In this document: piece by piece, positions 1-28,802 of the stretch
How positions within the stretch are numbered: position 1 is the first letter of the stretch
Layout of the letters: each line of letters begins with the position of its first letter
From: Nemertoderma westbladi
Lineage: Eukaryota; Animalia; Xenacoelomorpha
DNA: 38,257 nucleotides
Direction of reading: 5' to 3'
Assembly (NCBI GenBank): GCA_032718475.1
Contig: JAUCBJ010008969.1
Span: forward strand, 1 to 38,257
Notes under the pieces: model-generated
Database searches by the model: none
What the model was told of the DNA's origin: nothing
What the model saw: only the letters and a program-made list of their open reading frames with translations
Program-made: the position numbers and the translations under genes

Positions 1-407
1 AAATTTACACTAGGTGGTTATCTAAAAAATAGTGGGTTTGCAAGTCTACAGTAGTTGCAAGCGTAGCGAGCAGTAATATAGCTGATTACAGTCAGCGCTA
101 AGGGTACCAGGGTTTAGGTAAATAATTTCCCCCCTTTTGCATTATTAAATATTCTCACATTCAACATTTGTCCGCCTGACGAACTGCTTTATTTCTCTGT
201 GAAGGGTGAACAATTGGAGTGTTAAGTCACCAACACTCGTATTAAGTAGCTTGGGAAGCCAAATCAGATTTATTGTTTTGGTTGTTTCTGTTTCGGCTTG
301 TGTTTAGGGCAATTAGCTTGGTATGTTATAGTTTGATTAACCTCATTGTTTCATTCGAAAATACGAACATATCAAAAGGAAGAATCCCCTTTGAGATTTC
401 TTTAACA
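1..407 (+). repeat. 5' LTR of element 1 (3' part only)
   Basis: Direct repeat of 9093-9499; similarity stops exactly after ...TTTAACA. Confidence 0.92.
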
Positions 408-417
408 GTAAACGGCT
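408..417 (+). promoter_or_regulatory. PBS-position sequence GTAAACGGCT (non-tRNA; complementary to LTR site 8724-8733)
   Basis: Abuts the LTR end and lacks the TGG expected of a tRNA PBS; its reverse complement AGCCGTTTAC lies inside the LTR. Confidence 0.7.
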
Positions 418-1300
418 TTTATTTTTTTTTGTTCACTATTCATAGAGAATACAGTAATTCGTTAGGCTCTTAGGGTAAATTGTAAAATTAGTAAATTCAA
501 AATTAGTAGCTAGGTTTGTGAGAATTCAGTTTCGGCCAAAATTATTTATATAATAAAATTTAGGGTTTTAGTACCGGTATGTTGGATAACCGCTTAATTA
601 TTTTATACCATCTGGAGATACATGGCGAGATGGAACTTCTGATGCTGGGGTTTGTGTGGGTCTACGGGTTTGGTTCGCAATCAGCAACGAGTCTGAAGCC
701 TAGGACGCGGACGTGGAATCTCACAGCGAACAGGGTTAGTTGTTCTGTTGGTACCAGTGTGTTTGTGGAAGCAGTAAAAAATTACCGGTTGTTTGACTGC
801 GAAACTGAACTCAGTTTATTAGTTAGGTTAGTTAGGTTTAGCCGGCCATGTTGTTTTGGATCGCTCAGTTGGAGAGAGAGAGAGTGTCGCAACCTGAAGG
901 TGTAGCCACGCGCTAGTGGATACATATAATATTTAAAAATAAAATTACATTGATTTTGAGCTATATATAAAATTAGAAATATTTTGGGTGACAAATTTAT
1001 TTTTTTGAATTTTTGAATTAGATTCAAATTATTTTCGTGTCATACCGGTATTTAAATGCTGTATAATAGCTATAGAGCTACATTTTGTTTAAATATTATA
1101 GTGGTATTTACCATAATTATATACAATTAAATTCATAATATTTTTTATTTTGAATTAACAAATTTAATATTTGATATTTTGAGACCAAATAAACTATTTT
1201 GACAAATAATTTAATCGAAATTTCGATTAAATTAATATATATCTCGAAATTTTGCGAGATTTTAGCCGAAAGGCAAATAACTATATATATACTTTAAACA

Positions 1301-2197
1301 ATGAGTGTCTCAGAGAAGGAGGCACTAGAGGACAGCTATGAGACAGCGGCTGGACCGCCGACTGACGATAGTGTCAATATAACTGTTGACGACAATGCTG
1401 ACTATGACGACGCAGCGAGTGATGCTGATTTAAGTGAACAGGAGGACGAGATAGTAACCAGTGAAGAAGACCAAGGTGAGGTAATATTATTAGGGTCCCC
1501 TACTACTACTGTAAGGAAGGATGGCACACCAGCCCAACCCAAGGTGAGTGATAAGAAGGGGAGTTTAGCTGGGCCGAGAGCTCAAAGCCCGGTTTCCAGA
1601 CCCGTGGGTATGGTCAGTGCCGTGGTCCCAGTGGCAGTGAGGAGCACCCGGAGTTCCCGTAATAATCCCTCAAGTCCACCGAGTGTGAGTCAAGTAAGCG
1701 AAAGAGAACTGGACATCGCGATAAAAAAGAAACTTCGCGTGCATGCCGGACATATAACCCAGACGATGGACAAGGTAAGGACGATGTTAGCCGACTCTGG
1801 TAACATCGGAAGGGAAGGGTTAGTAGAGATTAGAAAGGGATACAACTCAGCGTTATTCAAGCAGACGGAGGAGCTTGCAGTCCTAGCGAAGAGAGCAGTG
1901 GAGTCCCAGTCGAGCGAAGTGGCGACGAGGGTTTACGACAGGGCTTTGGCAGCCTTGTTAGAGCACCGCGCGTTATCGGAGCGATTCCAACGAGTTAGGA
2001 CAGATAACTGGTTGCTATGGGCATCACAAGCGCAGGCGACTCAGGTAAGTGACGCAGAGTCGAGGAACTTAGTGGAGCAGGAAGAGATCCAAGAGGGAAG
2101 TTACCAGCTGGCTGATGCAGAGTGGAGTGGTGGTACCGGGCCAGATGCTACCGACGACGGAGAACATCCAACAGAGGACGTTAACTCCACCCGATGA
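1301..2197 (+). CDS. gag: N-terminal part of element 1 Gag (acidic/disordered then helical), out of frame with the main Gag ORF
   Basis: ATG follows an AT-rich leader; overlaps the +1 frame ORF (open from 2073); equivalent in position to the N-terminus of the element 2 polyprotein. Confidence 0.7.
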   Translation: MSVSEKEALEDSYETAAGPPTDDSVNITVDDNADYDDAASDADLSEQEDEIVTSEEDQGEVILLGSPTTTVRKDGTPAQPKVSDKKGSLAGPRAQSPVSRPVGMVSAVVPVAVRSTRSSRNNPSSPPSVSQVSERELDIAIKKKLRVHAGHITQTMDKVRTMLADSGNIGREGLVEIRKGYNSALFKQTEELAVLAKRAVESQSSEVATRVYDRALAALLEHRALSERFQRVRTDNWLLWASQAQATQVSDAESRNLVEQEEIQEGSYQLADAEWSGGTGPDATDDGEHPTEDVNSTR

Positions 2198-5100
2198 CGC
2201 ATCTAGAGACAGCGGCGATTCTCAGGTTAGTCACGCGCGAGGGAAGGTTATATGCGCTAGATCCCTTGTTTCTCACAACTCGGCGGAGGAGAGAAGACGC
2301 CGACTAGACGAACAACAGGCAGAGGTCTTGCGTGCATCGGAAGCACGGAAGGAAGCCGAGCGAGAGTGGGAGCGCACCCAGAAGTTAGATGCGAAGCTGC
2401 GAGAGTTGGAAGACATAAGTAAGCGTGAGCAAGCTGAGCGCAAACAGGAAGAACGCGAACTCCAACTCGAGCGCGAACGTGAAGAGAAGGAACTCCAGCT
2501 CGAACGCGAATGGGAAGCCAAGGAACGCGAACAAAGGAGACGCGAACTTCAACGCGAGCGCAAGGAGCGCGAACTCGAGCGCGAGAGGGAACGACGCGCA
2601 TTGTACGAAGAGAAAGCGCGACTGGAAGAAGAGAGCGCATCGAGACTCGCAAGGGAAGAAGAACAACGCAAACTGGCGCAAATTGAAAGTGCGAGACTAA
2701 ACTTAGAAAGCGAAGAACGAACAAGGAAGGCGAATGAAATTGCCGAAAGGGGGATGCGAATGATTGAAGAATGTGGGGCGAGTGTAGGTACCGAGTTGCG
2801 AGACCTGTTCTCACAGCAGAAGGCCGAACAGGAGGCGAGAACTCCGGTTATACGTGAGTCAACGGCGACCAGAATTCCTATACCCGGTCCAACTATTACA
2901 AGTACTCGGATCGCTAAACCGTTTTCTACATATCGCACGCCAGTTGGTATTAGTGCTTCACCCATCGCGCAGGATCCGCGCCATCAGGACGGCGCACTGC
3001 GGCATAGTTATTATCGGGAGAAGGAGGAGTTTAGAGAAGAAACTCCGAGAGGCCGAGTATTTGGCGAACCGAACCCGCGGGTTTGGAATACACGGACGGA
3101 TCGCCGACCCAGTTCAACGGAGAACTTCCGGGTTAAACCGGAAGAGGGATCATATGAGAGACAGCGGATTACTCAGATAGAGCCGACGATTCAGCAGAAC
3201 CCTAGCCAGGAATTTATTACGAGGGAGGAGTTAAGTGCCAGTTTAGCGCAAGCTATATCGCCGCACATCCAACCTATAACGGGCATGCTTAGTAACCTAC
3301 AGTTAAAGGAAGTGGCCCAGGTAAGAAGTAATTCTAATCCTAGCAGGCCTGAACTAGATATAGTCCAACCTAGTCAACGAGTACGCATATCGGAGGCAAC
3401 TATACCACAGAGACCTCAGGTAAGAACGCCCGTCCCTACGATCCACAATCCCGATTTCGAACATTCGGCAGAAAGATTTATACAAGAAGCTTGGGTCAGG
3501 GCCTCGGCGCATAAACCGACGCGAGCACCGAGAACCGACACAGACTCGAGCGATGAAGAGCAAGAATTGAGACGTCAGAAGTCCCAAAACCGGAAGGAAA
3601 GAAGGACCGACACAGAGCAGGTAAGGATGAATCCCCGGGAAGGGCCCAGACTCGACAACCCTGCAGAGTTGACCAACTTATTAATCCGGAATGACGCCAC
3701 CCTTCGGGATATTGGTAAGTTTGCTGCTAGGCAGGGATTGCCAGCGCAACAACCTCAGAGGTTTATGGGCAACCATAAACACTGGAGGACATTTAAGACT
3801 TATGTCAATGAGCAGTTAACTAACAGTACCTTTACCCCCAATGAAAAATTCAATTACTTATTGCAAATGCTCCATCGAGAGCCAAGGACCATTGCCGACA
3901 ATTTCGTCGGGAATGAAAATGCATTTGAACTAACAATGAAGACCCTTAGCGACGTCTATGGGAATAAAACCAAAATGGCACAATCAATAGTAGAGGATTT
4001 GGGCAAGGGTGGAAAAATTACAACACCGTTGGAACTGTTAAACTTGGCCAACGCCATTACAAATGCCCTAGATATTTTAAAAACAGTGAATCTACCACAC
4101 TATGGTGATCACGCTGAGGTTTTAAAGAGTATAATAAGACGCCTGAACTTTCGTTATCGGCAAAAATGGCGGAAATTAGAGAACAAATTGAAGGGTCAAG
4201 ATAAAGTGTTAACACTCAGACATATTCACGATATGATAGCAACCGACGCTATCGCAGAGATGAAGTCAAACTTCTCAGAGGAGAATATGAGAGAAACAAA
4301 ACCTGCTTTGGGAAGGTCTATGGTAAGTGTCAATGAAGACAGACAGTCTGTGACATTTAACACAGTAGACAAATATAACCAGAGTAACCATTCCCCCGCC
4401 TTGAGATCAGACTCGCGAGTCTGGTCAGGTGAGAGGTCAGAGAGACCTAGTATAAAGCAACAGGATTTGCCAGTTGGATTTGTGGGATGCCAGTTCTGCT
4501 TCTTAAAGGAAGTAAGGTCAGATGACCACAAGTTGGAAAATTGTAGGCGCTTCAAAGAACTGAGCTCAGAACAGAGACGGATTCAAGTGCGGACGTTAGA
4601 TACCTGTTGGGCATGTCTTGCTCCAGGTCATGTAAGACGCCAGTGCCCGAACAGTGGAAACGGATGTGTAGAGTGTGGCAGATTACATCATAAACTGCTA
4701 CACGCCGATTTCCATACTCCTACAAATCGTTATCTACAGGAAAACTCGGATAAAGTGAGAGGTAAGATAATAGCTACATCTCTATACTCACGCGAGTCCA
4801 TAGGTCCTCCAGACATAGATGTCTCAAGAAGAGATTGTAAAGACCATGATGAAAACGCTAGTGACTCGGAGGAGGAGTTATGTTCTGATAACGACCAGTT
4901 AGAACACAGTTATTACACTGAAACAGATAGTGATTATACCCCTGAGGATGATATCGAAGAGCGCCATTTCGGTGCTAAAAGTGGGTTTAACAGACACAGA
5001 ACGTTCCTAAGTGACTTCATTACATATACCTACATAACAGAGGGTCAGAACTTAGATAAGTCTCAAGTAGGTGTTGTGGTGCGGCCTAGAGACTCATTGG

Positions 5101-5645
5101 AGCGGCCTAGAGACCCATTGGATCGGCCTAGAGACTCATTGGAGCGGCCTAGAGACTCAGTGGAGCGGCCTAGAGACTCATTGGAGCGGCCTAGAGACTC
5201 ATTGGAGCGGCCAAGAGACTCAGTGGATCGGCCTAGAGACTCAGTGGATCAGCCTAGAGACTCAGTGGATAGGCCTAGAGGATCATTGGAGCGGCCTAAG
5301 GACTCATTGGAGCGGCCTAGAGACTCAGTGGAGCGGCCTAGAGACTCAGTGGAGCGGCCTAGAGACCCATTGGAACGGCCTATAGACTTCTTGGATCAAG
5401 AGACATACATGACCACAAGATCTGGAAGGGTTAGCTATGACATAAAGCCACCCCTACAGATTGCGCAAGGAGCTCCAGGGTCCCAGTTAGTAAGTAACCG
5501 ACAAGAAACGACCACACCAATGGAGCCTTCGGTTTACAAATCTGCGGATTTGGATTCGAAGATTCCGTCAGTGGGATTGCAATTGTCACCAACACGCATT
5601 GAGACAGGAGACTATAACTTGTCTTCTGCCTCAAAACAAAATTAA
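2115..5645 (+). CDS. gag: BEL/Pao Gag (E/R-rich helix, DUF1759-like capsid region, three Cys/His knuckles, heptad-repeat tail)
   Basis: FMGNHKHWRTFK...EKFNYL...LSDVYGN capsid-like region; CQFC..H..C, CWACLAPGHVRRQC, CVECGRLHHKLLH; no D(S/T)G protease motif before the stop. Confidence 0.88.
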   Translation: MQSGVVVPGQMLPTTENIQQRTLTPPDDASRDSGDSQVSHARGKVICARSLVSHNSAEERRRRLDEQQAEVLRASEARKEAEREWERTQKLDAKLRELEDISKREQAERKQEERELQLEREREEKELQLEREWEAKEREQRRRELQRERKERELERERERRALYEEKARLEEESASRLAREEEQRKLAQIESARLNLESEERTRKANEIAERGMRMIEECGASVGTELRDLFSQQKAEQEARTPVIRESTATRIPIPGPTITSTRIAKPFSTYRTPVGISASPIAQDPRHQDGALRHSYYREKEEFREETPRGRVFGEPNPRVWNTRTDRRPSSTENFRVKPEEGSYERQRITQIEPTIQQNPSQEFITREELSASLAQAISPHIQPITGMLSNLQLKEVAQVRSNSNPSRPELDIVQPSQRVRISEATIPQRPQVRTPVPTIHNPDFEHSAERFIQEAWVRASAHKPTRAPRTDTDSSDEEQELRRQKSQNRKERRTDTEQVRMNPREGPRLDNPAELTNLLIRNDATLRDIGKFAARQGLPAQQPQRFMGNHKHWRTFKTYVNEQLTNSTFTPNEKFNYLLQMLHREPRTIADNFVGNENAFELTMKTLSDVYGNKTKMAQSIVEDLGKGGKITTPLELLNLANAITNALDILKTVNLPHYGDHAEVLKSIIRRLNFRYRQKWRKLENKLKGQDKVLTLRHIHDMIATDAIAEMKSNFSEENMRETKPALGRSMVSVNEDRQSVTFNTVDKYNQSNHSPALRSDSRVWSGERSERPSIKQQDLPVGFVGCQFCFLKEVRSDDHKLENCRRFKELSSEQRRIQVRTLDTCWACLAPGHVRRQCPNSGNGCVECGRLHHKLLHADFHTPTNRYLQENSDKVRGKIIATSLYSRESIGPPDIDVSRRDCKDHDENASDSEEELCSDNDQLEHSYYTETDSDYTPEDDIEERHFGAKSGFNRHRTFLSDFITYTYITEGQNLDKSQVGVVVRPRDSLERPRDPLDRPRDSLERPRDSVERPRDSLERPRDSLERPRDSVDRPRDSVDQPRDSVDRPRGSLERPKDSLERPRDSVERPRDSVERPRDPLERPIDFLDQETYMTTRSGRVSYDIKPPLQIAQGAPGSQLVSNRQETTTPMEPSVYKSADLDSKIPSVGLQLSPTRIETGDYNLSSASKQN
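5082..5396 (+). repeat. 21-bp coding minisatellite, 15 copies (RPRDSLE)
   Basis: CGGCCTAGAGACTCATTGGAG unit, in frame within Gag. Confidence 0.95.
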
Positions 5646-6256
5646 TGCCAGAAACGCAGATTCACTTCATATGCATTCCTCATATGCAAATACTTGGAAA
5701 TGCATAGGAGCGGGTTTGTGGAGAATTGCGTTTGAAAATATGTTGGTGGGTATCAAATAAATTTTTTTTTGCATTTGAAAATTTGAAAGTTAAAAAATTA
5801 TAATTACAGTTGAACCCAAGACAAATTCAAACGTAGAATAAACATGTGAACATGTTTATAAGAGTATAGTATAGTAATTTTGAAAGTCGTGAGAAGTTGG
5901 AAGACATAGTATCTAAACACCATGGTTACGGCTATTATATTTAGGAGTGTAAATTGAGTTCAGTAGATTCCACAGATTGGTGCCAACAGTACAACAACCA
6001 AATGTGCTAAAGGTTAGTAGCACCAGCGACGTACACAGACCCCACTCAGTAGTTTGTAGTGGAGAGAGGTGTTCGATAATCAAACCCGTGGGTTTGGTAT
6101 AGTCGAGCGCCCCAAATAATGTCTGTTCTAACTACTGTATTCTAGTACAAGTATTTGGGGAGTAATTTGGGCATCAAAAAAGTGAGTCGGTCACGGCTAG
6201 TTTATCTCCAAAGTTTTTGCGCTATGCATGGGAATAGATATAGATGTTAGCTTAGG

Positions 6257-6986
6257 AATGAGACGGGATCTAGAGAGCCGAACCTGAACTGCTGGAAGGC
6301 GGGCCAGGTAGCTCGGGATGTCGAGCCAAGACTGGTATGGGCTTTATACCTCATTTATTGTCTAATTGGGTTTTAAGTTGAAGACGCAGAAGAAGTATGA
6401 GGAGGCGTACGGTGAATATAACACGCCGCCGGGAGCTGAGTTCAAATCCCATTTCAAGTGACAAGCGTTGGTATATTGGAACATTTGCGCACCACCTCGT
6501 GCTTCGTTGCAGTATTATCTATTGTTGGAATCAAACACGGTATCTTGCTTGATAACAGACATAGTCGCGAGAATTTTGAAGCACCATCCGTTGGTGTTTG
6601 GAGGAGCCCAGAAGAACGAAAGCGATCCGATGAGTAACCCAATGATAACCGTCGATTTAGCGGAAAGAAACCCCCAACGTCTGTTACATCGATGACTACG
6701 ATTCCGGATCCTTATATAGTGAGATTGGAACTCATACTACTCCTGCCTTAGTCGAGATGTCGATGTGAGTGCCGATGAGGTAAAGATACGACGCGAAAAG
6801 ACAATGCAAGCTGTTCCGACATCCAGTAGACTCGCGCCATCCATCCGTCTACTAACTATACCCACGATCCGCGATTTATACGATATTTTACTCCAAATTA
6901 TTTCGGGAAGTTTCGACGCACGTATTATTAAGCCCGAATATGTCCAATCCTTTATATATCATCGTCGCTCTGATATATACGTCTAG
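6257..6986 (+). pseudogene. Decayed accessory ORF in the env position of element 1, possibly spliced
   Basis: 6378-6986 reads in one frame (ORFs 6468 and 6765 are in frame) with four internal stops; candidate GT..AG mini-intron 6335-6377 joins an upstream exon in frame. Confidence 0.4.
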
Positions 6987-7720
6987 ATTTATTGCCCCCC
7001 ATCACAAGTGGATTTTAATATATGTTATACTTATTTTTCATTTGATTTAGTTTAGACAGAATTTTTTTTATATAAAAAAGAAGGCCGAAAAATATTGAAA
7101 GGAAATACTTTCACTTTGTAGTCCGTTGGAAATAGTAAATACTTTATACTATATTTGATTTTGTGTATATGACTTCATTTGCTCTAAAGTTTATTGAAAG
7201 AGGCAAAGGAAGTGATTGGGGAGACAAACCCGCGGGTTTGGCTTACTCCTTTCACTTACCTGAGCAATCATCAAACCAAGATGATTTGCGTTTTTTATAA
7301 GAAATTAAGTAAAGTCCGAAAATGAAAGAAATTATTACGTATTTTATATTTAATTTGATTGTCAGCCTTAAAACGCAATAATATTTAGTTAAACATTTAG
7401 CCTCAAATACGTTTTATATTTTAGTTCTTTTGTTATTATTGTTCTCTATAATTTGAGATGGGAAATGGGGGACATTGTCCTAGCCATGTTCCATTTCAAT
7501 AAGTAAATTGTTAATTTGTAAATATTTCGAAGGAAGTATATTTTGTAATCTAATTTGTATTTGTATGTAATAATTTATGCAGTAAAGGTAGCAATATTTT
7601 GTATGTATTAGAATTATAATAGAACCAGGTTTATTGATTTATTTGAAAGTAAATTTTATTTGTTATTCCACACCGCCATATTTCTTCTACAATTGGAGAG
7701 AAACATTACATGTTTCTCTT

Positions 7721-7727
7721 GGAGCGG
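7721..7727 (+). promoter_or_regulatory. Short PPT (GGAGCGG) of element 1
   Basis: Directly before TGTT; the same motif (GGGAGCGG) precedes the independently defined 3' LTR of element 2. Confidence 0.7.
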
Positions 7728-9499
7728 TGTTGCGATATATGGCGCTGTGTACAGAACAACCCGTTATACAGTATAAAATAAGTTAGATAAGTGCGTATTG
7801 ATGTGCAACCGTAATAATTCGATAGGGTAAATAAAAAATATACAAGTTCATTTTATATTCAGTCGATTTTATACAGTATGTAGCCCTATTTATGTCGTTT
7901 TATAATAAAACCCTGATATATTCATTTGCGGTGGCAAAATTCTTTAAAACAAAATATGAATTTTGCCGTTTTTCAATATCTATCGAATCTAATACATTTG
8001 TGCTAATTTTATTTACATATCCTTATAAATCGATGTTTGTGCTAAAATAACGCCTAAATTGTGCTTTTAATAATCGCCAAATTAAGTTGAGGCGATTACG
8101 TGCTTTAATGATTCTAAATTGAGTTCTGCCCACTGGTTGGTCGAAAATCCAGCTGAGACAACCCTGGATGTCGCCTGAATATGTGAGCAAATTTAGACTT
8201 TCCGTCATTCCTACAGTTTAGCAGTCTGGCAGTAGCCATCTTTATTCTTCGTTTTTTGCACTTCCGTTGGTTGTAAATGTTGCTGCTTTCTTCATACATT
8301 TGTGACTTTTGAATATGATTACTGCTTAGTCTGACTGTTGATTTTATATTTCTGATTGCAAATATAATTGGCGCAATGTAGTGAACCAAAATCAACGTTT
8401 GTTTCCTTCGACTGTCTGACTGTCTGATTGGGTTTTACTATGTTTGCGCCGTTACGGTAACTGCTCTCTTTAACATGTTGGGCTAGGGGTAGGCGCCGCG
8501 GGCAGCGGGCTCACTGTTTGGAAGCGACGGGAGAAGTTGGAGGATCCAATGCACGGCACTACCGGCGGGGCTGGTGGCTGCGGTTGGCTGAATTAAGTTT
8601 AGGACCGAGGGCCGGTCGCCATTAAGGCTGTAAGGGGCAAGGCGACCTAGATCTTGTCTCTCAGATTTGCTATTAGGCTAGCTAGGTTTAGGTAGAAAGA
8701 TCACATTGATCTGGGGTGACCTTAGCCGTTTACGCTAATGCTACGTTTATGCTAATGCTATGCTAATGCTAACGCTAATGCTAATGCTATTTATGTGTAA
8801 TGTTTTAGATAGGTGCTAGATATTTGATTGTTTCTGTTTTCTATTTATGCTTGTTAAATTACTGTTAGCTCCAATAATACGGTATTTAGGCTGTCTTTAG
8901 TGTAGCCCAGTAACGTAACTAATTAGCGTTACAAATTCTGGAATACCTAATAATTAGTTCGCAACCCCGTACATTTGAGTAAATGTAGTTTATGTATGAT
9001 AGTATTTAGAATAAAATAAGGACTTCGTACGCTGCATAGCGGAGAATAGTTTTAGTTATTTACACTTTGGAAATACAGAAATATCTTTGGACAAATTTAC
9101 ACTAGGTGGTTATCTAAAAAATAGTGGGTTTGCAAGTCTACAGTAGTTGCAAGCGTAGCGAGCAGTAATATAGCTGATTACAGTCAGCGCTAAGGGTACC
9201 AGGGTTTAGGTAAATAATTTCCCCCCTTTTGCATTATTAAATATTCTCACATTCAACATTTGTCCGCCTGACGAACTGCTTTATTTCTCTGTGAAGGGTG
9301 AACATTTGGAGTGTTAAGTCACCAACACTCGTATTAAGTAGCTTGGGAAGCCAAATCAGATTTATTGTTTTGGTTGTTTCTGTTTCGGCTTGTGTTTAGG
9401 GCAATTAGCTTGGTATGTTATAGTTTGATTAACCTCATTGTTTCATTCGAAAATACGAACATATCAAAAGGAAGAATCCCCTTTGAGATTTCTTTAACA
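7728..9499 (+). repeat. 3' LTR of element 1 (~1772 bp, TGTT...AACA)
   Basis: 3' end fixed by the repeat with 1-407; 5' end inferred from the PPT plus TG. Contains a GC-rich promoter-like block (8480-8650), CCAAT at 8546 and (GCTAAT)n-like repeats at 8734-8790. Confidence 0.78.
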
Positions 9500-11608
9500 C
9501 TCCACCTAACATATAAATATGTGGGAATACTCCACCTAACATATAAATGTGTGGGAATACTCCACCTAACATATAAATGTGTGGGAATACTCCACCTAAC
9601 ATATAAATGTGTAGGAATACTCCACCTAACATATAAATGTGTAGGAATACTCTACCTAACATATAAATGTGTGGGAATACTCCACCTAACATATAAATGT
9701 GTAGGAATACTCCACCTAACATATAAATATGTGGGAATACTCCACCTAACATATAAATATGTAGGAATACTCCACCTAACATATAAATGTGTGGGAATAC
9801 TCCACCTAACATATAGATGTGTGGGAATACTCCACCTAACATATAGATGTGTGGGAATACTCCACCTAACATATAAATGAGTGGGAATACTCCACCTAAC
9901 ATATAAATGTGTGGGAATACTCCACCTAACATATAAATGTGTGGGAATACTCCACCTAACATATAAATGTGTGGGAATACTCCACCTAAAATATAAATGT
10001 GTGGGAATACTCCACCTAACATATAAATGTGTGGGAATACTCCACCTAACAGATAAATGTGTGGGAATACTCCACCTAACATATAAATGAGTGGGAATAC
10101 TCCACCTAACATATAAATGTGTGGGAATACTCCACCTAACATATAAATGTGTGGGAATACTCCACCTAACATATAAATGTGTGGGAATACTCCACCTAAC
10201 ATATAAATGAGTGGGAATACTCCACCTAACATATAAATGTGTGGGAATACTCCACCTAACATATAAATGTGTGGGAATACTCCACCTAACATATAAATGC
10301 GTGGGAATACTCCACCTAACATATAAATGTGTGGGAATACTCCACCTAACATATAAATGTGTGGGAATACTCCACCTAACATATAAATGAGTGGGAATAC
10401 TCCACCTAACATATAAATGTGTGGGAATACTCCACCTAACATATAAATGTGTGGGAATACTCCACCTAACATATAGATGTGTGGGAATACTCCACCTAAC
10501 ATATAAATGAGTGGGAATACTCCACCTAACATATAAATATGTGGGAATACTCCACCTAACATATAAATGTGTGGGAATACTCCACCTAACATATAAATAT
10601 GTGGGAATACTCCACCTAACATATAAATGTGTGGGAATACTCTACCTAACATATAAATGTGTGGGAATACTCCACCTAACATATAAATGTGTGGGAATAC
10701 TCCACCTAACATATAAATGTGTGGGAATACTCCACCTAACATATACATGTGTAGGAATACTCCACCTAACATATAAATGTGTGGGAATACTCCACCTAAC
10801 ATATAAATGTGTGGGAATACTCCACCTAACATATAAATGTGTGGGAATACTCCACCTAACATATAAATATGTGGGAATACTCCACCTAACATATAAATGT
10901 GTGGGAATACTCCACCTAACATATAAATGTGTGGGAATACTCCACCTAACATATAAATGTGTGGGAATACTCCACCTAACATATAAATGTGTGGGAATAC
11001 TCCACCTAACATATAAATGTGTGGGAATACTCTACCTAACATATAAATGTGTGGGAATACTCCACCTAACATGTAAATGTGTGGGAATACTCCACCTAAC
11101 ATATAAATGTGTGGGAATACTCCACCTAACATATAAATGTGTGGGAATACTCTACCTAACATATAAATGTGTGGGAATACTCCACCTAACATATAAATGT
11201 GTGGGAATACTCCACCTAACATATAAATGTGTGGGAATACTCTACCTAACATATAAATGTGTGGGAATACTCTACCTAACATATAAATGTGTGGGAATAC
11301 TCCACCTAACATGTAAATGTGTGGGAATACTCCACCTAACATATAAATGTGTGGGAATACTCCACCTAACATATAAATGTGTGGGAATACTCTACCTAAC
11401 ATATAAATGTGTGGGAATACTCCACCTAACATATAAATGTGTGGGAATACTCCACCTAACATATAAATGAGTGGGAATACTCCACCTAACATATAAATAT
11501 GTGGGAATACTCCACCTAACATATAAATGTGTGGGAATACTCCACCTAACATATAAATGTGTGGGAATACTCCACCTAAAATATAAATGTGTGGGAATAC
11601 TCCACCTA
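9500..11608. repeat. 30-bp minisatellite, ~70 copies (CTCCACCTAACATATAAATGTGTGGGAATA)
   Basis: Perfect 30-bp periodicity with few variants; begins directly at the LTR end. Confidence 0.98.
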
Positions 11609-12466: not shown

Positions 12467-13722
12467 TGTACGCGCTTTTGAAGACCTTTAGCAGTTTAAC
12501 CTGCCAAAATTTATATGTCTTTTGGTTTATAAATAGACTTTAGAAGTTGACAAATATTTAATACCAATAAACACAACATTAGCAGAAGCCAGCCTAGTGC
12601 GCGTCCATTCACCCGCTGGATATACCCGGGAGACTGGATTCTGAGGGCTTAGATTATTATTGCAGTGTAAGCTTACTGTATTATTCGATTGATCGTTAAT
12701 AAATAATTTCTGACTAATATTATTCACTTTCGGGAAATATTAACAGTTCCTTTAGGACGTGGCGCTCTATCTAGGTAAACAGAGATATGACTTATACTAA
12801 TCACAACGGTAAGTCGGTAAGGCTTATGATTCACGTATGAGGCGCATTCTTTAGGAAATGCTTAGTTATCAGTCACAATCATGCACACTACCGGTAACAC
12901 ACAATACTGCTCACTAATTTGCCGACCGTCAATGAATTTTATCATATATAAAGAGAACAGCAACGGACTCATGTAGTGCTTATCAAATAGCATTAAATTC
13001 ACTACAAACCACAATAATATAAGTCGCAATCGCTATATATAACCCGTCTCTCTAACCTGTAGTGTATCAAGAAAATTGGGAAATTTGGGTTCTTTATAGA
13101 TGTTATCCAAATAATATTCAACCAACAGATACAAAATATGACAACAGCAAACAGCAGCACAACAATGTATGTTGAACCGATAATGCAAGACTGAACGGAG
13201 TTGCACCGATAACAGTTATACGCTCTATAATCTTAAGCCTACTAATGTTTCTTCTAAAGTATGAAAACGAATTGACTCTAGAGCCGGTGTTCCTGGCCTA
13301 GATAGAAACAACACAACAGTAACAAGAAAAACAGTAAGACTGAACACTCCTAGCATGATCTGCCAAAATATCTCCACATCGACAGAAAAAATCGCTCTGA
13401 TTGGCTGTTAAGCTAAACAAAGAACCATGTGTCCAATGGCCGTTTCCATGTCAGCAACCAGCTGTTAGATGTCGTAAGCTGAATCATCAAGGCTAAGCTG
13501 TGCCAGGGTATTTGGTGCATTGCGGGTTTTTTGCCTTACCATGTCCGCCAAAGCACACATATAGAAGAATGACGTTTATGTCCGTTAAAACACCTATAAC
13601 GGTACCTTGCGGGCGAGGGGGATATATATATAGTTAGAGAGCTTTTTAGAGTATTCCAGCGCCTGGGGGGAAACTGGATTGCAAAGCAAAAGGGCCAGTT
13701 ATATCCCACAGAAGCTTTTACA
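12467..13722 (-). repeat. 3' LTR of element 2 (1256 bp)
   Basis: Direct repeat of 27093-28362, bounded by the TSD and the PPT. Confidence 0.95.
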
Positions 13723-13800: not shown

Positions 13801-15250
13801 TTAGTCTTTCTTACGCGGACGGCGTTTACGCAGTTTTTTAAAGCTAGCCAGAGTCTTTTTCTCTTTGGGGCGAGCCACTTTACAAGGAGGGCTATAACTC
13901 CTGGGTGAAGGGTGCAATATGATTGCATCAGAGGGTGTAGGATTATGGTCGGTGTATCCGCCAGTCGAAGTACCGGGTTGATTGACATCAACGTCGGGGG
14001 AGAGGGGTCTAACGGCTTTGAGAGCTCGTTTTAAGACAGCCGCTCTTACGGGTCCTTTACGAGTGGTCTGAACGAGAGCCGTGGGTGGACCATAGGCAGT
14101 TAGAAACCTCCGGGGTTTAATGGTTCTTTCCAACTCGCGTTCGCAGGCTCGGTATTCATAAGGCCGTCGATATACTTCCTGTAACTCGGGGTGTGAGTTA
14201 ACAAATAAGTCTCCATAGTCCGGGTCCTGACGGATATAATTGATTAAGCTATAGGAATGAAGGTCGCTAGGATTAACACTCCTGAGAAATTTGCGTACGA
14301 ACTTGGTTGAAATACATTCTCCGACGCGCTTCAGTAGTTCGTAACTCGATATGCGTGATTTCTGTTCGACAGAAGCGAATAGATAAGGATGGAACGCATA
14401 AACTCCTTCGTAAGCGCGTCCAGGATAATAACGATGGCGCGAATCACAATGTAAATCAGCGTTCGCTTCCCAAGCTCTGATGTAACGTAGTGTGATCATT
14501 TCATCTACGCTTTCCAAATCGTGATTAAAAAGGGCAATCGAAACTGGCGCGTCCCTTTAGTTGACAATGGTGCCATTGAGTCATAAATTGAGGGCAAACC
14601 GCAAAAATGTGCAAGTTATTGAGTCTGCAATACGCGCAATAAATTTCCATCGCCGGTTGTTCGTGGAAATAGGAACAGCGGACGTTTGTGTCCATGGGCG
14701 TAACATGGTCTCTCGATGCGCATAACCGACAACGTTGCCGAGAAACATAGTTGGCATGGCGATAATCGTACGCAGTGAGACACTGTGGACCTTGATACCA
14801 TTCTAGGATGTAATCGTTGTCGCTGTTCCGGGCGCGATAGGCTGAATCTCCTCAGATTCTAGGCATATTGGTTCGTCTTCCCAGTCTGTTACGAATAGAA
14901 TTTTCGTGATCTATTTTCGGTTTATCGTTACGACTCCGCTGGGTATGATATTTAAATAGAACCATTTCCCTTTCGGTGTCTACATCGTCCGTATCATGTA
15001 AATCGATAGGATGGCCGGTAGTTAGGAAGTCCATATACGTACCATTACGATGCGTATAGCGAGCGGTGAATTTTCGATAGTCCAATTCACGCGTAAGTTG
15101 CTCTTGGGACATCGGCGGTTCGATATAACGACCATCGTCCTCCGTAATGGTTGGATCGGCTTCACCGCGTATCAAGCTATCCACAAATGCTTGTAAAGGT
15201 AGAGTATATCGCTCCCTGATACCAAGATCATCTTCTATCAACTCCGTCAT
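13801..15250 (-). pseudogene. Accessory env-position gene, ~482 aa when repaired, with triple CCHC zinc knuckle and basic C-terminus
   Basis: ORF 15250-14852 continues past TGA in frame into CRLCASRDH..C / CAYCRLNNLHIFAVCP / WHHCQLKGRASFDCP (to 14525); removing one T from the T5 run joins it to ORF 14517-13801, which ends KKLRKRRPRKKD. Confidence 0.7.
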
Positions 15251-15782
15251 ATCTGCTATCTGAGTTTATTAATATTGTAATGAGTTTATGTTTAGGCGAG
15301 CGGGCGTCGCTGCCTACCTCTCTTCGCCCCGGACAGTGGGATTCTCAGCGCCGATGTACCGTCGTCGCGGTGTTTACGCCAACATGTAGCAACATCACGA
15401 CAACGATAACCGGCACAAGTCACTCCACTGTCCGTCCCAAAGGCTTGAATCCACTTTAGGTTCTTTCTATAGGAGAGTTGGGCTACTTTCACAATTGCGA
15501 CTAGCTACTGTAAACACACCTTAGCAGTAACATTCACCTACAAACGCACAAATTCCACACAACTGTCACCAATTGTACACATACAGGCCATTTGTCCGTT
15601 AGTCAGTGCCTTCCAGAATGTCACGTTATTACTGTGTATCCTTGGATACTAACAGTGTGCTATGTATTCTCTATGCTATGCAATGGGACAAGCTTTCTAT
15701 TGTTCTTTTAACTTGCTTCTAATTCTAGCGTGGGTGTTGCTATGGTGACATTATGGAATGCTAGCGGTAGAATTAGGGTAAT

Positions 15783-20091: not shown

Positions 20092-23000
20092 TTACGTTAT
20101 GGAGTCCCTAGATATTTGTCGGATTAGGGAAGTGGTCGTAGGAAGAGTATCTTGCCTTCCATAGTTTCCGGACAGTTTTCGGTCTCTTTCCAGTAAACAT
20201 AAACGACTAGCTGGGCGATTGAGTTGTTGTGTTACTTTCTCCGCTCCCTTGGCCTGTCTAATCTTCACCGGGGTAAGATGAGGAGGCCATTCTTCTTCTT
20301 CTTTACTTAAGAAGTCGGATCCACCTAACCAGCCTGGAGTATCTATCAGTTCTTGAGGAGTTGCTCCTCTGGAAGCGATGTCGGCTGGATTAATCGTCCC
20401 AAGGCAATATCTCCATTGATCTACATTGGAGTTAATATCGTCATTATCTGAGGAGTATGGTGTTTCCTCAGTTGGATCGTCCACATCACTGCTCTCCACT
20501 TCCCATTCCTTTACTTGGTATACCTGTTGTTGAGGTAATCTCTCTTTGAGAGTTCTACGGGAAGGGCCAGTGAAGTACCAACCTACTCTAGTTCTTACCG
20601 CATAGGTTTGTAGTGGCTGCGGTTGAGCAGGCCGTTTCTCCAATGTCTCGAGCGCCTCATGCGCATTTTGGCCGATGAGTATTTGCACTCCAGGATAATC
20701 TGTCTGGAATCGAGGTATCTTAAGATGTTGGATGCTCTCATCCTCGTCCCAATTATAAAGGTCTGCTTGGGTAGTAGCGAAGTTCTTTATAGCCACCATT
20801 TTTACCGACCTTATACCTTGTGCTCCTAATTTATCCTGGGGGGTGGACAACACACCTACATAGTAATCTGCCGTTAGGGTAGATTTCCAAACCTGCATAA
20901 TTCCTGACATATTCAATTTAGTCCGGAATTTGGGTTGTCCAGCAAAGATATCTTCGGCTAGTTCTTGATCGATGAATGTTCCTGTGCTGCCGGAGTCAAG
21001 GAGGGCGTTCACTATGTAACTTTTGTTAGGACCGTGAACTCTTACCTGCACTACAGGAAATTCTCTGATTCCTACGTTGGAAGTTGGAGCTTTCCAAGAT
21101 GGTTGTCTGTCAAAGGTAGTTGGGGGGAACTCATTATCGGTGTCCTTTTCATGCGTAAGTGCTCGATACACTGCGGTATTTATTAAGTAACAGGATTCGT
21201 TGGCGTCGGAGAATTCGTCCGTATAGAATCCTTCCATCTCAGATTCTTGATCAGTGTCATTTACATCACTGAATTGGACATGTAGTTCGGGCTCACTTAC
21301 CTGACTCGGGTTGTCTCGTTCGAACTCACTGTGTAACAAGATGTGATGTTTCGCGCCACACTTTGCACACTTTACGTCGGAGTAACAGGTTCGCCGTTGG
21401 TGTCCTGATCTGAGGCAATTATAGCATAACCGCTTATTCCACAGGACTGCACGTCTGTCTACAAGGGATTTCTTTAGAAATTCAGCACACGCACTCAAAC
21501 GGTGGGGCCCGTCGCACAGCGCACATTTTGGTTTGATGTTACTCACTTTACCTTGGGTAACGTTATGCACTCTCGTTCTTTCTTCGGGCTTTCTTCCGTG
21601 AATTCTCTTAGGAGACGTGGGAGGAGTTGTTGTTACCTGTTCTCTCCTATCGTTGGTTCGAGACTTATATTTACTTACGTCTTTGTAGGTCTTGTTGTCA
21701 TAGTAAGATTTTGCTGTGTCTTTCCCACTGTCCTCTTCTTGAGAAGCTTGGCTTTCGCCGTCATCAGTATAACACACGGGTATTATCCTTCTCCTAGAAA
21801 CGGGTTTCTCACTTACCTTATTTTCCGATGTTTTCTCTCTGGACTGCTTTATGAGTTGTAATTTTACTTCACTATCTAAGAAGGACATGAGATCAGCCAT
21901 GGTAGGGCTTCGTCGTTGCTGCTCATTCATATACAACACTTTCTTGTCCCAGCGTGTACATACTCCACCCTTTGGTAAAGTAGAGACTACGGCTCCAATA
22001 ACCATGGAACTCTGATATTCATGAGACTTACCTAACCAGTCCAATTGTCTACAGATCTCCTGAATCTCATCGGAAAACTCTATAATCCCGCTACTAAGGA
22101 AGTTTCGGGGGGCTACTAATTTTGCATACAAATACTTAGCTATGTTATCCTTGTTACCGTACCTGATGTTTAATGTATCCCAAACTTGTCTTAATCCTTC
22201 TGGATGTCCAATAAACTTTAACGCCATTAACTTGGGAGGTCCTTCCAAACACTTGATGAGGAATCTAAGCTTCTCTCCGTTAGATAGTACAGAGTTCTGT
22301 ATACTATCTTTGTAATATTCATTGAAAGGTAACCATTTCATCTCATCTCCATTGAATTTGACGATCTCTCCCACTTTAACCGCTTGGCGGGCTTCTGTTC
22401 TAGCCATCTGACGCGTAAAGCTTTCTTGGGCCATCGTGTTATTTAATATCGAATTATCGGTATATAAATTTCCCGGATTATTATCAGGTCTATAGGGAAT
22501 ATCATTAACAACAGGTTTATAATCACCCTTAATAGGGTTTGCTATAGGAGTTTCTACTTCACTAGCAGTATAGATGCGTGTAGGCTCCACACCTTGCGCA
22601 TGTAATACTTCAGACCTAACAGGTTGACACAATGTTACAGGGGGTATTGGTATACTCTTTTGTATATTGACTAATTTGTCGCGTTCCAGCGCGATACTTT
22701 GCTGCACTTCTTGCAATTCTGCCCTACCTTCCCTTACTGTTCCCTTAAGTTGGTGGACAGTCTCCTGCATCTGTCCGAGCAGGAGGTTCATCCCCCGCCG
22801 TCCCTCTTCTACCCACTCGACCGCCGAAGCGGGAGTCGCCAACATTGTAGCGGGCTGACGCGGGACGACGGGAGACAAATCTTTGATTTCTCTCTCAGCT
22901 TCCAGGACAGGGATATTCTCACGGACTGTTCTACCGGGTACATGCAGTGTAGTACTGTGTAAATGGAATTTAGAGTTTGTTTCAGGGAGTACAGGTGTCT

Positions 23001-24894
23001 CTAGCACCGAAGGGGTGGCTTCGAGAAAAGGCCTAATTATTTCAGGCTCATCTGTTATAGTAGGGAGTCTGTTGACGGTAATAATTCGGTCTGTAGGTTC
23101 TGTACTACCTACTGTTGTGCTAGCTAATTGTCTTCTAACGGCTGGGGGCAAATCAGGCAATTTATGACGGTGAGATGTTCTTCTACGTCTACTGAGACGA
23201 GATTGATTTCCTCCACCTTCAGGATCGGTGGTATCCCCTTCCTCCGATGATGTATAGCCTTGGCGTTTGGAAGTAGATCGACTCATCATCTGCATTCGAC
23301 TGTCTGTTAACTGCCTACCGATGCTGTCTTGCGTCTCCTGCAGATTTTCTAACTCCAGCTGGGCGGTCTCCTCAGACGCTCTCCGTTCTGCTTCTGCCAC
23401 TGCCTCCGCCGCCCTTCTTTCCGCCTTTCTGTCTGCTTCGGCTGCTGCTTCTGCCGCCTTTCTGTCTGCTTCTGCTTTTGCCTCTGCCGCTTTTATTTCC
23501 GCTTCGGCCGCTGCTTCTGCCGCCTTTCTGTCTGCTTCTGCTTTTACCTCCGCCGCTTTTATTTCCGCTTCGGCCGCTGCTTCTGCCGCCTTTCTGTCTG
23601 CTTCTGCTTTTGCCTCCGCCGCTTTTATTTCCGCTTCAGCCGCTGCTTCTGCCGCCTTTCTTTCCGCCTTTCTGTCTGCTTCTGCTGTTGCCATTGCCGC
23701 TGCTATTGCTGCTGCCTTTTTGTCTTCAATCCGCCTTTTCTTTACTTGTCCTTCTTGAGCTCTAGCTATGCTGAGACGTTCATCAAATTTAGCTTGGTCC
23801 GCAGCTATCATCTCAGTATCGATTGCGTCCAACACAAGCTTGGTTCCTTCACTATTAGGGGAAAGTCCAGACAGCCGTCTCCTCAACTCTTCGTCTCCTA
23901 GGAATCGCTGATAGTCGGACAGATAAATGTCGATACCGTCTCTAGTTCGCGGTCTCTCTGCTGTCACTTCGCTTTCCGCTTGAGAAAGGGTGGCATCGGT
24001 TGGTTCTTCATAGGTTGGTCTCTCAGCCAGCTGGGATTTCCACTGGGCAGTTTCTTGTACTTTGAGACTTACCCGCTGGAACCAAGTCTTGACAGCAACC
24101 TGCAGCGACGTGTCCTGTCTTCTTTTGGAAGTTTCCTCAAAGGCTGATAGGATTAGTCTAATACGTAGGGTTCTTTCGCGTACTTGATAAAGCAGCTCTT
24201 CCTGCTCTTGAGGTCCTTGGGGTTGTCGAAACAATTGTTCTTCCAATCGCTCTAAGGAGCCGAAGAATCCCTGCACATATCCTGCTGCCGACCTCTTCCA
24301 AACAGCTGGATCCATCGTATCTTTAGTCACTCCCATCCTGTGTATATCTTCCCAAGTAGCTTCGGACAAATCTAACGGGAGTCCGGGTCCGGGAAAGTTC
24401 CATTGTGACTCGACAATAGACACCAATTCTTCCCTGGCGTATCCCGCATAATCATCTTGGGTCGCTCTCTTACTTCTCGCCCAATCGGCTTGATGTTCCT
24501 CCACCGCAATCAATATAGTAGTTAGTACTGCGGCAGGAAGGGTGAGAAGGGGATCCGAGTAGGCTGTAGCCGTCATCTGCACTCCGCGTTCGGGGGTCAG
24601 CTCTACAGCATCCGAACTACTGGAGCTATCGGATCGCTGGGAACAAGTTTCTTGACTAGGATGTTGCTGCTGTTGGACAGCTGCTTCCTGGTTCCGTTTG
24701 ACTTGGGCCCGAGTGCCGATGATAGACCTACGGTGTTGGATTAGCTTAGGGTCTGATACTACTACTGGAGGGATGACCTTTCTTTCAGTATGAGGTGAGC
24801 TGAACTCCTTTCTTAATCGCTCCACACTCCTATCTGTGTCACAGATGGTTGTATCGATTAGACTGTCTGATAGGTTTTGCTGGGTGTCAGACAT
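20092..24894 (-). CDS. gag: BEL/Pao Gag-protease polyprotein with in-frame loss of RT and integrase (1600 aa)
   Basis: FNGDEMKWLPF..EKLRFL..LNIRYGN; CALCDGPHRLSAC, CYNCLRSGHQRRTC, CAKCGAKHHILLH; protease ALLDSGSTGTFI; TRVGW..GP; then QWRY..NPADIASRG..WL.G..FL..WP and RPASRLCLLE remnants. Confidence 0.92.
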   Translation of the reverse strand: MSDTQQNLSDSLIDTTICDTDRSVERLRKEFSSPHTERKVIPPVVVSDPKLIQHRRSIIGTRAQVKRNQEAAVQQQQHPSQETCSQRSDSSSSSDAVELTPERGVQMTATAYSDPLLTLPAAVLTTILIAVEEHQADWARSKRATQDDYAGYAREELVSIVESQWNFPGPGLPLDLSEATWEDIHRMGVTKDTMDPAVWKRSAAGYVQGFFGSLERLEEQLFRQPQGPQEQEELLYQVRERTLRIRLILSAFEETSKRRQDTSLQVAVKTWFQRVSLKVQETAQWKSQLAERPTYEEPTDATLSQAESEVTAERPRTRDGIDIYLSDYQRFLGDEELRRRLSGLSPNSEGTKLVLDAIDTEMIAADQAKFDERLSIARAQEGQVKKRRIEDKKAAAIAAAMATAEADRKAERKAAEAAAEAEIKAAEAKAEADRKAAEAAAEAEIKAAEVKAEADRKAAEAAAEAEIKAAEAKAEADRKAAEAAAEADRKAERRAAEAVAEAERRASEETAQLELENLQETQDSIGRQLTDSRMQMMSRSTSKRQGYTSSEEGDTTDPEGGGNQSRLSRRRRTSHRHKLPDLPPAVRRQLASTTVGSTEPTDRIITVNRLPTITDEPEIIRPFLEATPSVLETPVLPETNSKFHLHSTTLHVPGRTVRENIPVLEAEREIKDLSPVVPRQPATMLATPASAVEWVEEGRRGMNLLLGQMQETVHQLKGTVREGRAELQEVQQSIALERDKLVNIQKSIPIPPVTLCQPVRSEVLHAQGVEPTRIYTASEVETPIANPIKGDYKPVVNDIPYRPDNNPGNLYTDNSILNNTMAQESFTRQMARTEARQAVKVGEIVKFNGDEMKWLPFNEYYKDSIQNSVLSNGEKLRFLIKCLEGPPKLMALKFIGHPEGLRQVWDTLNIRYGNKDNIAKYLYAKLVAPRNFLSSGIIEFSDEIQEICRQLDWLGKSHEYQSSMVIGAVVSTLPKGGVCTRWDKKVLYMNEQQRRSPTMADLMSFLDSEVKLQLIKQSREKTSENKVSEKPVSRRRIIPVCYTDDGESQASQEEDSGKDTAKSYYDNKTYKDVSKYKSRTNDRREQVTTTPPTSPKRIHGRKPEERTRVHNVTQGKVSNIKPKCALCDGPHRLSACAEFLKKSLVDRRAVLWNKRLCYNCLRSGHQRRTCYSDVKCAKCGAKHHILLHSEFERDNPSQVSEPELHVQFSDVNDTDQESEMEGFYTDEFSDANESCYLINTAVYRALTHEKDTDNEFPPTTFDRQPSWKAPTSNVGIREFPVVQVRVHGPNKSYIVNALLDSGSTGTFIDQELAEDIFAGQPKFRTKLNMSGIMQVWKSTLTADYYVGVLSTPQDKLGAQGIRSVKMVAIKNFATTQADLYNWDEDESIQHLKIPRFQTDYPGVQILIGQNAHEALETLEKRPAQPQPLQTYAVRTRVGWYFTGPSRRTLKERLPQQQVYQVKEWEVESSDVDDPTEETPYSSDNDDINSNVDQWRYCLGTINPADIASRGATPQELIDTPGWLGGSDFLSKEEEEWPPHLTPVKIRQAKGAEKVTQQLNRPASRLCLLERDRKLSGNYGRQDTLPTTTSLIRQISRDSIT
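23395..23700 (-). repeat. 66-bp coding repeat (KAAEAAAEAEIKAAEAKAEADR)n
   Basis: 66-bp period visible at 23461/23527/23593. Confidence 0.9.
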
Positions 24895-24974
24895 GTTTAG
24901 CTATACAGTTGAATGCTTACTGCTATAGTTACAGTTAAAGCAAGTCTAGTAATTCAGTATGACCGTTGGCCTAG

Positions 24975-27081: not shown

Positions 27082-27092
27082 ATAACTGTTAT
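27082..27092 (-). promoter_or_regulatory. PBS-position sequence ATAACAGTTAT (non-tRNA; complementary to LTR site 27858-27848)
   Basis: Abuts the 5' LTR on the - strand, no TGG; the complement ATAACTGTTAT lies in both LTRs. Confidence 0.65.
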
Positions 27093-28362
27093 TGTACGCG
27101 CTTTTGTAGACCTTTAGCAGTTTAACCTGCCAAAATTTATATGTCTTTTGGTTTATAAATAGACTTTAGAAGTTGACAAATATTTAATACCAATAAACAC
27201 AACATTAGCAGAAGCCAGCCTAGTGCGCGTCCATTCACCCGCTGGATATACCCGGGAGACTGGATTCTGAGGGCTTAGATTATTATTGCAGTGTAAGCTT
27301 ACTGTATTATTCGATTGATCGTTAATAAATAATTTCTGACTAATATTATTCACTTTCGGGAAATATTAACAGTTCCTTTAGGACGTGGCGCTCTATCTAG
27401 GTAAACAGAGATATGACTTGTACTAAACACAACGGTAAGTCGGTAAGGCTTATGATTCACGTATGAGGCGCATTCTTTAGGAAATGCTTAGTTATCAGTC
27501 ACAATCAGGCACACTACCGGGAACACACAATACTGCTCACTAATTTGCCGACCGTCAATGAATTTTATCATATATAAAGAGAACAGCAACTGACTCATGT
27601 AGTGCTTATCAAATAGCATTAAATTCACTATAAACCACAATAATATAAGTCGCAATCGCTATATATAACCCATCTCTCTAACCTGTAGTGTATCAAGAAA
27701 ATTGGGAAATTTGGGTTCTTTATAAATGTTCTCCAAATAATATTCAACCAACTGATACAAAATATGACAACAGTAAAAAGCATTAAGACGGTAGGTTAAG
27801 ATATGATATGTTATGAATTGAACTGATATGGACCGTGATATGCACTGATAACAGTTATACGCTCTATAATCTTAAGCCTACTAATGTTTCTTCTAAAAGT
27901 CTGAAACGAATTGACTCTAGAGCCGGTGCTCCTGGCCTAGATAGAAACAACACAACAGTATCAAGAAAAAACAGTAAGACTGAACACTCCTAGCATGATC
28001 TGCCAAAATATCTCCACATCGACAGAAAAAATCGCTCTGATTGGCTGTTAAGCTAAACAAAGAACCATGTGTCCAATGGCCGTTTCCATGTCAGCAACCA
28101 GCTGTTAGATGTCGTAATCTGAATCATCAAGGCTAAGCTGTGCCAGGGTATTTGGTGCATTGCGGGTTTTTTGCCTTACCATGTCCGCCAAAGCACACAT
28201 ATAGAAGAATGACATTTATGTCCGTTAAAACACCTATAACAGTACCTTGCGGGTGAGGGGGATATATATATAGTTAGAGAGCTTTTTAGAGTATTCCAGC
28301 GCCTGGGGGGAAACTGGATTGCAAAGCAAAAGGGCCAGTTATATCCCACAGAAGCTTTTACA
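27093..28362 (-). repeat. 5' LTR of element 2 (1270 bp)
   Basis: Repeat of 12467-13722; followed by the TSD. Confidence 0.95.
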
Positions 28363-28480: not shown

Positions 28481-28766
28481 ATGTAGCTACAGTAGCTCTT
28501 ATAAAGGTCTAGATTACTGCATGTAGCTACAGTAGCTCTTATAAAGGTCTAGATTACTTCATGTAGCTACAGTAGCTCTTATAAAGGTCCAGATTACTGC
28601 ATGTAGCTACAGTAGTTCTTATAAAGGTCTAGATTACTGTATGTAGTTACAGTAGCTCTTATAAAGGTCTAGATTACTGCATGTAGCTACAGTAGCTCTT
28701 ATAAAGGTCTAGATTACTGCATGTAGTTACAGTAGCTCTTATAAAGGTCTAGATTACTGCATGTAG

Positions 28767-28770
<4 letters not shown>
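28481..28770. repeat. 40-bp minisatellite, left part (~7 copies)
   Basis: ATGTAGCTACAGTAGCTCTTATAAAGGTCTAGATTACTGC. Confidence 0.97.

Positions 28771-28802
<32 letters not shown>

Follow-up and report, generated by a model that had tools for sequence, protein, structure and literature searches.

The 38,257-nt contig JAUCBJ010008969.1 of Nemertoderma westbladi (assembly GCA_032718475.1), which we analyzed over its whole length (the window), carries two BEL/Pao-type retrotransposons with long terminal repeats (LTRs), element 1 on the forward strand and element 2 on the reverse strand (Table 1). BEL/Pao is the least-studied LTR retrotransposon superfamily, and its members are described as tRNA primed. 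In both elements the primer-binding site (PBS) abuts the 5' LTR and is exactly complementary to a stretch inside the element's own LTR, and the missing TGG suggests that neither site is of the tRNA type. We estimate at roughly two in three the probability that this LTR stretch primes reverse transcription of both elements in the manner of Tf1, with the reverse transcriptase (RT) of a helper element acting in trans; the anatomy is read from the DNA, and the enzymatic steps are predicted by analogy.

The initial annotation had considered element 1 and reported that its 5' LTR is followed by a 10-mer and not by TGG, that the exact complement of this 10-mer lies in the 3' LTR, 776 nt from the LTR end, and that the chance of a given 10-mer match was about 0.002. 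The anatomy was borne out: the two LTR copies diverge directly after ...TTTAACA, i.e., after the terminal CA, which sets the LTR end at 407/9499, and the nearest TGG is found 175 nt downstream. The complementarity starts at offset 0 and ends at 10 nt, its orientation suits extension into U5, and both 10-mers are unique in the window. Within the LTR, the site also pairs most stably with this complement, at -16.3 kcal/mol versus -10.9 kcal/mol for the next partner. The Markov expectation (0.0017 to 0.0018) agrees with the earlier chance value, while in an empirical null 24 of 7,300 internal positions reached at least 10 nt (0.0033). Taken alone, this match, chosen post hoc, is only suggestive. 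The LTR copies are 99.75% identical over the 407 nt compared, and the element therefore appears to have moved recently, carrying its present site.

Element 2 played no part in forming the idea of self-priming and is hence the real test. Its nearest TGG is 47 nt after the LTR, its complementarity extends over 11 nt, and only 6 of 13,350 internal positions reached this length in the corresponding null (about 0.009 when a 10-nt match at any one of six offsets also counts). The joint chance value for the two elements is 1.5e-6 to 1.9e-4. In the LTRs of element 2 the site again pairs most stably with the complement, whose distance from the LTR end is nearly equal to that in element 1 (766 nt in the 5' LTR versus 776 nt). 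The letters are different ones: each site matches the LTR of the other element over only 6 nt, the LTRs cannot be aligned (score of 35, with shuffles scoring up to 38), and the Gag proteins are about 26% identical over their best stretch. Because the LTRs do not align and Gag is this divergent, the pairing appears to have been conserved while its letters changed. A comparison of site and complement across BEL families had been proposed as a check; two divergent elements in the window keep the pairing, and 10 control loci from other BEL clades show no such match.

A further pattern lies at the 3' edge of the complement. In element 1 the largest cluster of near-tandem duplicates begins 8 nt before the end of the predicted primer, and in the 3' LTR of element 2 the only such cluster in 1,203 positions scanned begins 5 nt before it. 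When the two LTRs of element 2 are compared, the primer and the 39 nt before it contain no difference, the first difference comes 2 nt after the primer, and a variable segment follows directly behind the complement. Read from these patterns, the 3' edge of the complement is a boundary, and it is where a Tf1-type cut would fall. We infer that misaligned first jumps of the cDNA made the duplications and the variable patch.

Under the proposed mechanism, the RNA would begin at the LTR stretch or somewhat upstream, and the stretch would pair with the site over a loop of about 770 nt. An autonomous helper would then provide the RT/RNase H that cleaves at the 3' edge of the stretch (8733/8734 in element 1), so that a 3'-OH faces the terminal CA of the LTR; any such cut must come from a helper, since RT/RNase H is encoded in neither element. 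The minus strong-stop DNA, some 760 nt long and copying U5 and R, would end at the cut and jump to the 3' copy of R, which would require polyadenylation downstream (in element 1, AATAAA at 9010), and misaligned jumps would produce short duplications at the cut. For Tf1, the accessible text of PMC7175516 describes pairing of the first 11 bases with the PBS and an RNase H cut between bases 11 and 12; the cut falls directly behind the primer and thereby sets the end of minus strong-stop DNA (PMC7175516 and PMC5341516, as far as accessible).

Table 1. Features of the two BEL/Pao elements (positions in the window; +, forward strand; -, reverse strand)
Feature	Position	Strand	Remark
Element 1
5' LTR, 3' part	1..407	+	406/407 identical to 9093-9499; remainder upstream of window
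Primer-binding position GTAAACGGCT	408..417	+	Abuts LTR; no TGG
First open reading frame (ORF)	1298..2197	+	299 aa; no Pfam match; overlaps start of gag ORF in another frame
BEL/Pao gag-type ORF	2073..5645	+	DUF1759 at aa 564-704; Cys/His knuckles; no pol after it
Purine tract GGAGCGG	7721..7727	+	Before 3' LTR; identical 7 letters in element 2
3' LTR	7728..9499	+	1772 nt; TG...CA
Canonical TATA motif	7772..7778	+	Close to LTR 5' end; competing promoter candidate
Possible proximal poly(A) site	8361..8391	+	AATATA, then A-run behind 8391 in one contig of run X4
CCAAT	8546..8550	+	-178 from complement
Predicted self-primer	8724..8733	+	Exact reverse complement of 408-417; 776 nt from LTR end
17-nt near-tandem duplication	8726..8789	+	Spans primer 3' edge; runs into GCTAAT array starting at 8734
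AATAAA, candidate distal poly(A) signal	9010..9015	+	286 nt after primer start; would give R region
Element 2
Whole element (second BEL/Pao element)	28362-12467	-	Overall extent
Target duplication AATAT	28367-28363 and 12466-12462	-	5 bp
5' LTR	27093..28362	-	1270 nt; TG...CA
CCAAT	28040..28044	-	-186 from complement
Exact 11-nt complement, 5' LTR	27848..27858	-	766 nt from LTR end
Hypervariable patch	27763..27847	-	Directly behind primer; 32 of 53 LTR-LTR differences in 85 nt
Primer-binding position ATAACAGTTAT	27082..27092	-	Abuts LTR; no TGG
gag-protease ORF	20092..24900	-	DUF1759; ends in short RNase H-end-like stretch of BEL Pol; RT and integrase absent
Same 11-mer, 3' LTR	13209..13219	-	753 nt from LTR end; that LTR's only near-tandem duplicate behind it
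3' LTR	12467..13722	-	1256 nt

Several points weigh against this mechanism. The RNA ends, the cut, and the primer are all predicted, start site and cleavage by analogy with Tf1; the tests cover two families only, and in element 1 the 5' copy of the primer lies upstream of the window. The site of element 2 is nearly palindromic and AT rich (Markov expectation of 0.0013 to 0.0037), and its core duplex has only -10.1 kcal/mol. Folding of its real leader gives the primer pairing a probability of about 0.19. There is no good TATA at -30 in either element, canonical TATA motifs being located at LTR position +45 in element 1 and +91 in element 2; a contig of sequencing run X4 has an A-run behind 8391, 27 to 30 nt after AATATA and upstream of the proposed start; and AATAAA is missing from the LTR of element 2. 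The scars were recognized post hoc, and the 5' LTR of element 2 shows no duplicate at the threshold of 11/13. The control loci have short LTRs (150 to 370 nt) and are not close kin.

RNA folding gave a mixed picture beyond this pairing probability. The pairing of element 2 is part of the minimum-energy fold of an 809-nt version of the leader and not of a 799-nt version, its 5' LTR offers the primer edge an alternative 9-nt partner in a competing helix, and the z-score of the leader fold is -0.94. Extra pairing beside the core is no better than with random LTR flanks (1000/1000 and 330/1000 as good), and no extended U5 stem was found around the primer duplex of either element.

The initial annotation had placed the transcription start of element 1 at 8724, citing an initiator-like TTAG, TAGAAAGA at -31, CCAAT at -178, and a GC-rich block upstream. 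All of these are present where it placed them, the block having 55 to 61% GC, but the -31 sequence resembles a TATA box poorly and has no equivalent in element 2, and TTAG reads equally well as a splice acceptor. Among the promoter motifs, the position of CCAAT alone is common to both elements (-178 versus -186). Given weak motifs, canonical TATA motifs elsewhere, and an A-run upstream, a start at 8724 has no support beyond the case for self-priming itself. Run X4, the source of the A-run, has few records, with depth increasing toward the 3' end; an automated guess labels it DNA, and from the record pattern and the A-run we infer that it is probably RNA. Its mean depth is 5.8 at 8513-8816 and 0 at 8817-9092, where the lack of contigs is no evidence of absence. 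An RNA ending at about 8391 could not make the first jump because it would lack R. No RNA run is listed among the six runs that carry the sequence, which says nothing about expression. Four of the six were compared with 1-9092 as contigs, which do not reveal start sites; among the 40 variants listed out of 1,523, none falls within the site or the primer.

These observations bear on the best-surviving rival, itself unlikely, in which the elements are self-primed with another geometry. The RNA would start near the TATA at the LTR 5' end, or splicing at the AG acceptor 8724-8725 would supply its 5' exon or leader; the primer would be cut from within the RNA, possibly from a second packaged copy, and copying would proceed on an uncut template. 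The TATA motifs at +45 and +91 and the A-run behind 8391 would suit such a course, as would TTAG/C as an acceptor, since any AG-ending exon spliced there retains the same 10-mer. However, element 2 has no acceptor at its primer, the duplications at the primer 3' edge suit a cDNA ending there, and no GT-AG intron in either LTR extends the match, the best gain being 1 nt with GC donors, which is at chance level. A primer built by splicing was rejected for lack of a GT-AG intron that improves the match.

A metagenome scan provided 65 loci from other BEL clades. In all, 66 loci were fetched, 16 of which had long direct repeats; 14 of these were inspected and 10 tested. Eight of the 10 tested loci, with both LTR ends, have a TGG 3 to 5 nt after the LTR, and a self-complement longer than 4 nt was found in none of the 10. 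No TGG was counted in the remaining two (L009 and L012), although the LTR end of L009 had been set too early and a TGG site is present there in a motif scan. When scanned for tRNA-site patterns, 22 of the 34 loci that include upstream DNA showed a CA...TGG site, and several of the misses visibly have one or lack upstream DNA. Priming by tRNA appears to be the rule in this sample, which consists of other clades with short LTRs and so is no test of the present lineage. No BEL loci were found in viral contigs, and genome contigs yielded a single one, L066, whose pol-like ORF of BEL/Pao type lies on a contig from the metagenome-assembled genome of a bacterial symbiont, probably as host contamination.

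A host tRNA fragment or other small RNA could likewise prime the two elements, with the LTR complement masking the site, switching translation or packaging, or dimerizing; we regard this as improbable, to much the same degree as the other geometry or slightly more so. BEL/Pao elements are described as tRNA primed (PMC8742986), and half-tRNA priming without TGG is found in Copia lineages according to the accessible part of PMC6317226. The alternative 9-nt partner of the primer edge in element 2 would also fit, and the near self-complementarity of the element 2 site would favor dimerization. Against this, the sites differ in sequence and would call for two unrelated fragments, both with an exact copy in the LTR at an equal distance. 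In each element, moreover, the match starts right at the LTR end, without the spacer of 3 to 5 nt seen in the tRNA-type controls.

Very improbable, in our view, is a coincidence in AT-rich, decayed elements that have lost their true primer sites. Both elements are defective, without RT, and in element 1 a match of 10 nt is reached at about one internal position in 300. Such a coincidence would nevertheless have had to recur in the independent element 2, with 11 nt at offset 0 and at nearly the same distance, hence the low joint chance value, and element 1, with its nearly identical LTRs, is a recent mover with this very site. Least probable of all is priming by the polyadenylation end of the RNA itself, generated by cleavage at the 3' edge of the complement: in none of the three LTR copies do the 50 nt preceding the primer end contain a hexamer resembling a poly(A) signal (seven variants scanned), and the single A-run observed is at 8391.

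Priming by the elements' own LTRs would have its closest parallels outside BEL/Pao. Like Tf1 and Tf2 of Schizosaccharomyces pombe, Tj1, and the Tf1/sushi group, both elements have a site of 10 to 11 nt at the LTR end that is complementary to their own LTR, and no tRNA-type site. Unlike the Tf1/sushi group, which belongs to Ty3/gypsy, they encode a BEL/Pao Gag and no Ty3/gypsy chromovirus proteins; compared with Tf1, their LTRs measure 1.3 to 1.8 kb, the loop spans about 770 nt, an own RT is missing, we could find no extended U5 stem, and start and cleavage are predicted. With Belpaoviridae they share the DUF1759 Gag with Cys/His knuckles and TG...CA LTRs, and element 2 also the 5-bp target duplication, the BEL-type protease, and an RNase H-end remnant. 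[quoted passage not shown] As judged from these characters, they are BEL/Pao by Gag and Tf1-like by anatomy, and not members of Tf1/sushi. The claim of the initial annotation that this BEL lineage primes itself like Tf1 was strengthened by a second, divergent element with another 11-mer and by the scars at the predicted cut, and it was weakened at the start site.

Self-priming is demonstrated for Tf1, has been proposed for Tj1 (PMC4600332, accessible part), and is a prediction in the case of Tcn1 and of the TAR lineage of Copia (PMC6317226, accessible part). The latter work used as a criterion at least 10 bp starting 0 to 5 bp after the LTR, and elements 1 and 2 have 10 and 11 nt at offset 0. 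This criterion uses sequence alone, and the published predictions concern other superfamilies and hosts, BEL/Pao not being among the groups named in its accessible part. A literature check, suggested earlier, found no description of self-priming in BEL; it excluded Repbase Reports and most subscription journals. The terms primer, PBS, and tRNA, as searched, do not occur in the BEL survey PMC3118150 or the Sinbad paper PMC554778. No BEL self-priming is described in the accessible parts of PMC6934838, PMC3601003, PMC12451622, PMC13524379, and PMC11042837, and the searched terms are also absent from the supplements of PMC13524379. In the literature covered, self-priming is in print for other retrotransposon groups only, and a prior BEL description may exist outside it. 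The first five letters of the element 2 site equal the start of the Tf1 PBS (as given in the accessible part of PMC11042837), and CTTT(T)ATT occurs within a few bases after both sites; either may be due to chance.

If the elements are self-primed, self-priming would be present in all three LTR retrotransposon superfamilies, and RT cleavage of an RNA duplex would be either easily evolved or old. Such elements would be independent of the host tRNA supply and of tRNA-fragment targeting of the primer site, and annotation pipelines requiring a tRNA PBS would be expected to miss or mislabel them. The two unalignable LTRs lead to exact predictions, namely, RNA ends at 8724/8733 and 27858/27848. A more far-reaching scenario, which we put forward tentatively and consider unlikely as a whole, would be that a long-LTR BEL/Pao lineage evolved tRNA-independent self-priming independently of Ty3/gypsy and Ty1/copia, with an RT that cuts an RNA duplex closed over a 770-nt loop, serves gag-only parasites in trans, and leaves duplication scars; the choice between proximal (U3, about 8391) and distal (after 9010) poly(A) sites would then sort uncopiable Gag mRNA from copiable genome RNA.

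PF03564 was above the cutoff in the ORFs of both elements. All 13 protein matches to the element 2 region carry PF03564, and 10 of the 13 also carry PF05380. A search of 1.84 billion representatives returned as closest relative of the element 1 Gag core a protein of 27% identity, and another protein search returned no match; no close relatives were found. Because the best Gag relative is only 27% identical, the lineage is, at the protein level, distant from sampled BELs. In a Gag-core tree of 30 rows, elements 1 and 2 form one supported group with two unnamed proteins, with the caveat that all four are on long branches.

Neither element copy contains an RT or integrase, and by coding content both are non-autonomous derivatives. 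The 2 kb of element 1 after gag (5645-7727) have no pol, a point that the initial annotation did not mention: the longest ORF between gag and the LTR is below 90 aa, and tblastn with 13 BEL proteins, 10 having the Pol peptidase family, matches only Gag in element 1. Contigs from other samples cross the gag end into this region (X4 record 29, 5319-6218), and because they run through it, the gag-only build looks like a family trait. Four runs, which come from three studies of a single organism, contain the element 1 family in abundance. Element 2 retains the protease region and an RNase H-end remnant of 45 to 50 aa with about 50% identity to BEL Pol. An uninterrupted 1013-aa endonuclease-RT ORF of a non-LTR element (15876-18917, reverse strand) lies within element 2 and shares its orientation; it is probably a nested insertion and not element 2's own pol. 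Extra ORFs of 251, 137, and 108 aa, one of them Cys/His rich, precede its 3' LTR (13801-15265, reverse strand) and may be cargo; the 251-aa ORF has no Pfam match. Both gag ORFs contain in-frame tandem repeats, with 15 copies of a 21-nt unit in element 1 (5077-5395) and 33/66-nt units in element 2 (23421-23701).

Element 1 adjoins a 30-bp satellite of about 70 copies with 97% matches (9499-11608) and was probably inserted into this array. Elsewhere in the window, a 454-aa RT ORF (28833-30197, reverse strand) lies between two 40-bp tandem arrays (region 28481-30801), and an inverted 486-nt copy of its 3' end is found at 34639-35124. A long imperfect inverted repeat at 35715-35962, with arms of 32 and 57 nt, may be a miniature inverted-repeat transposable element.

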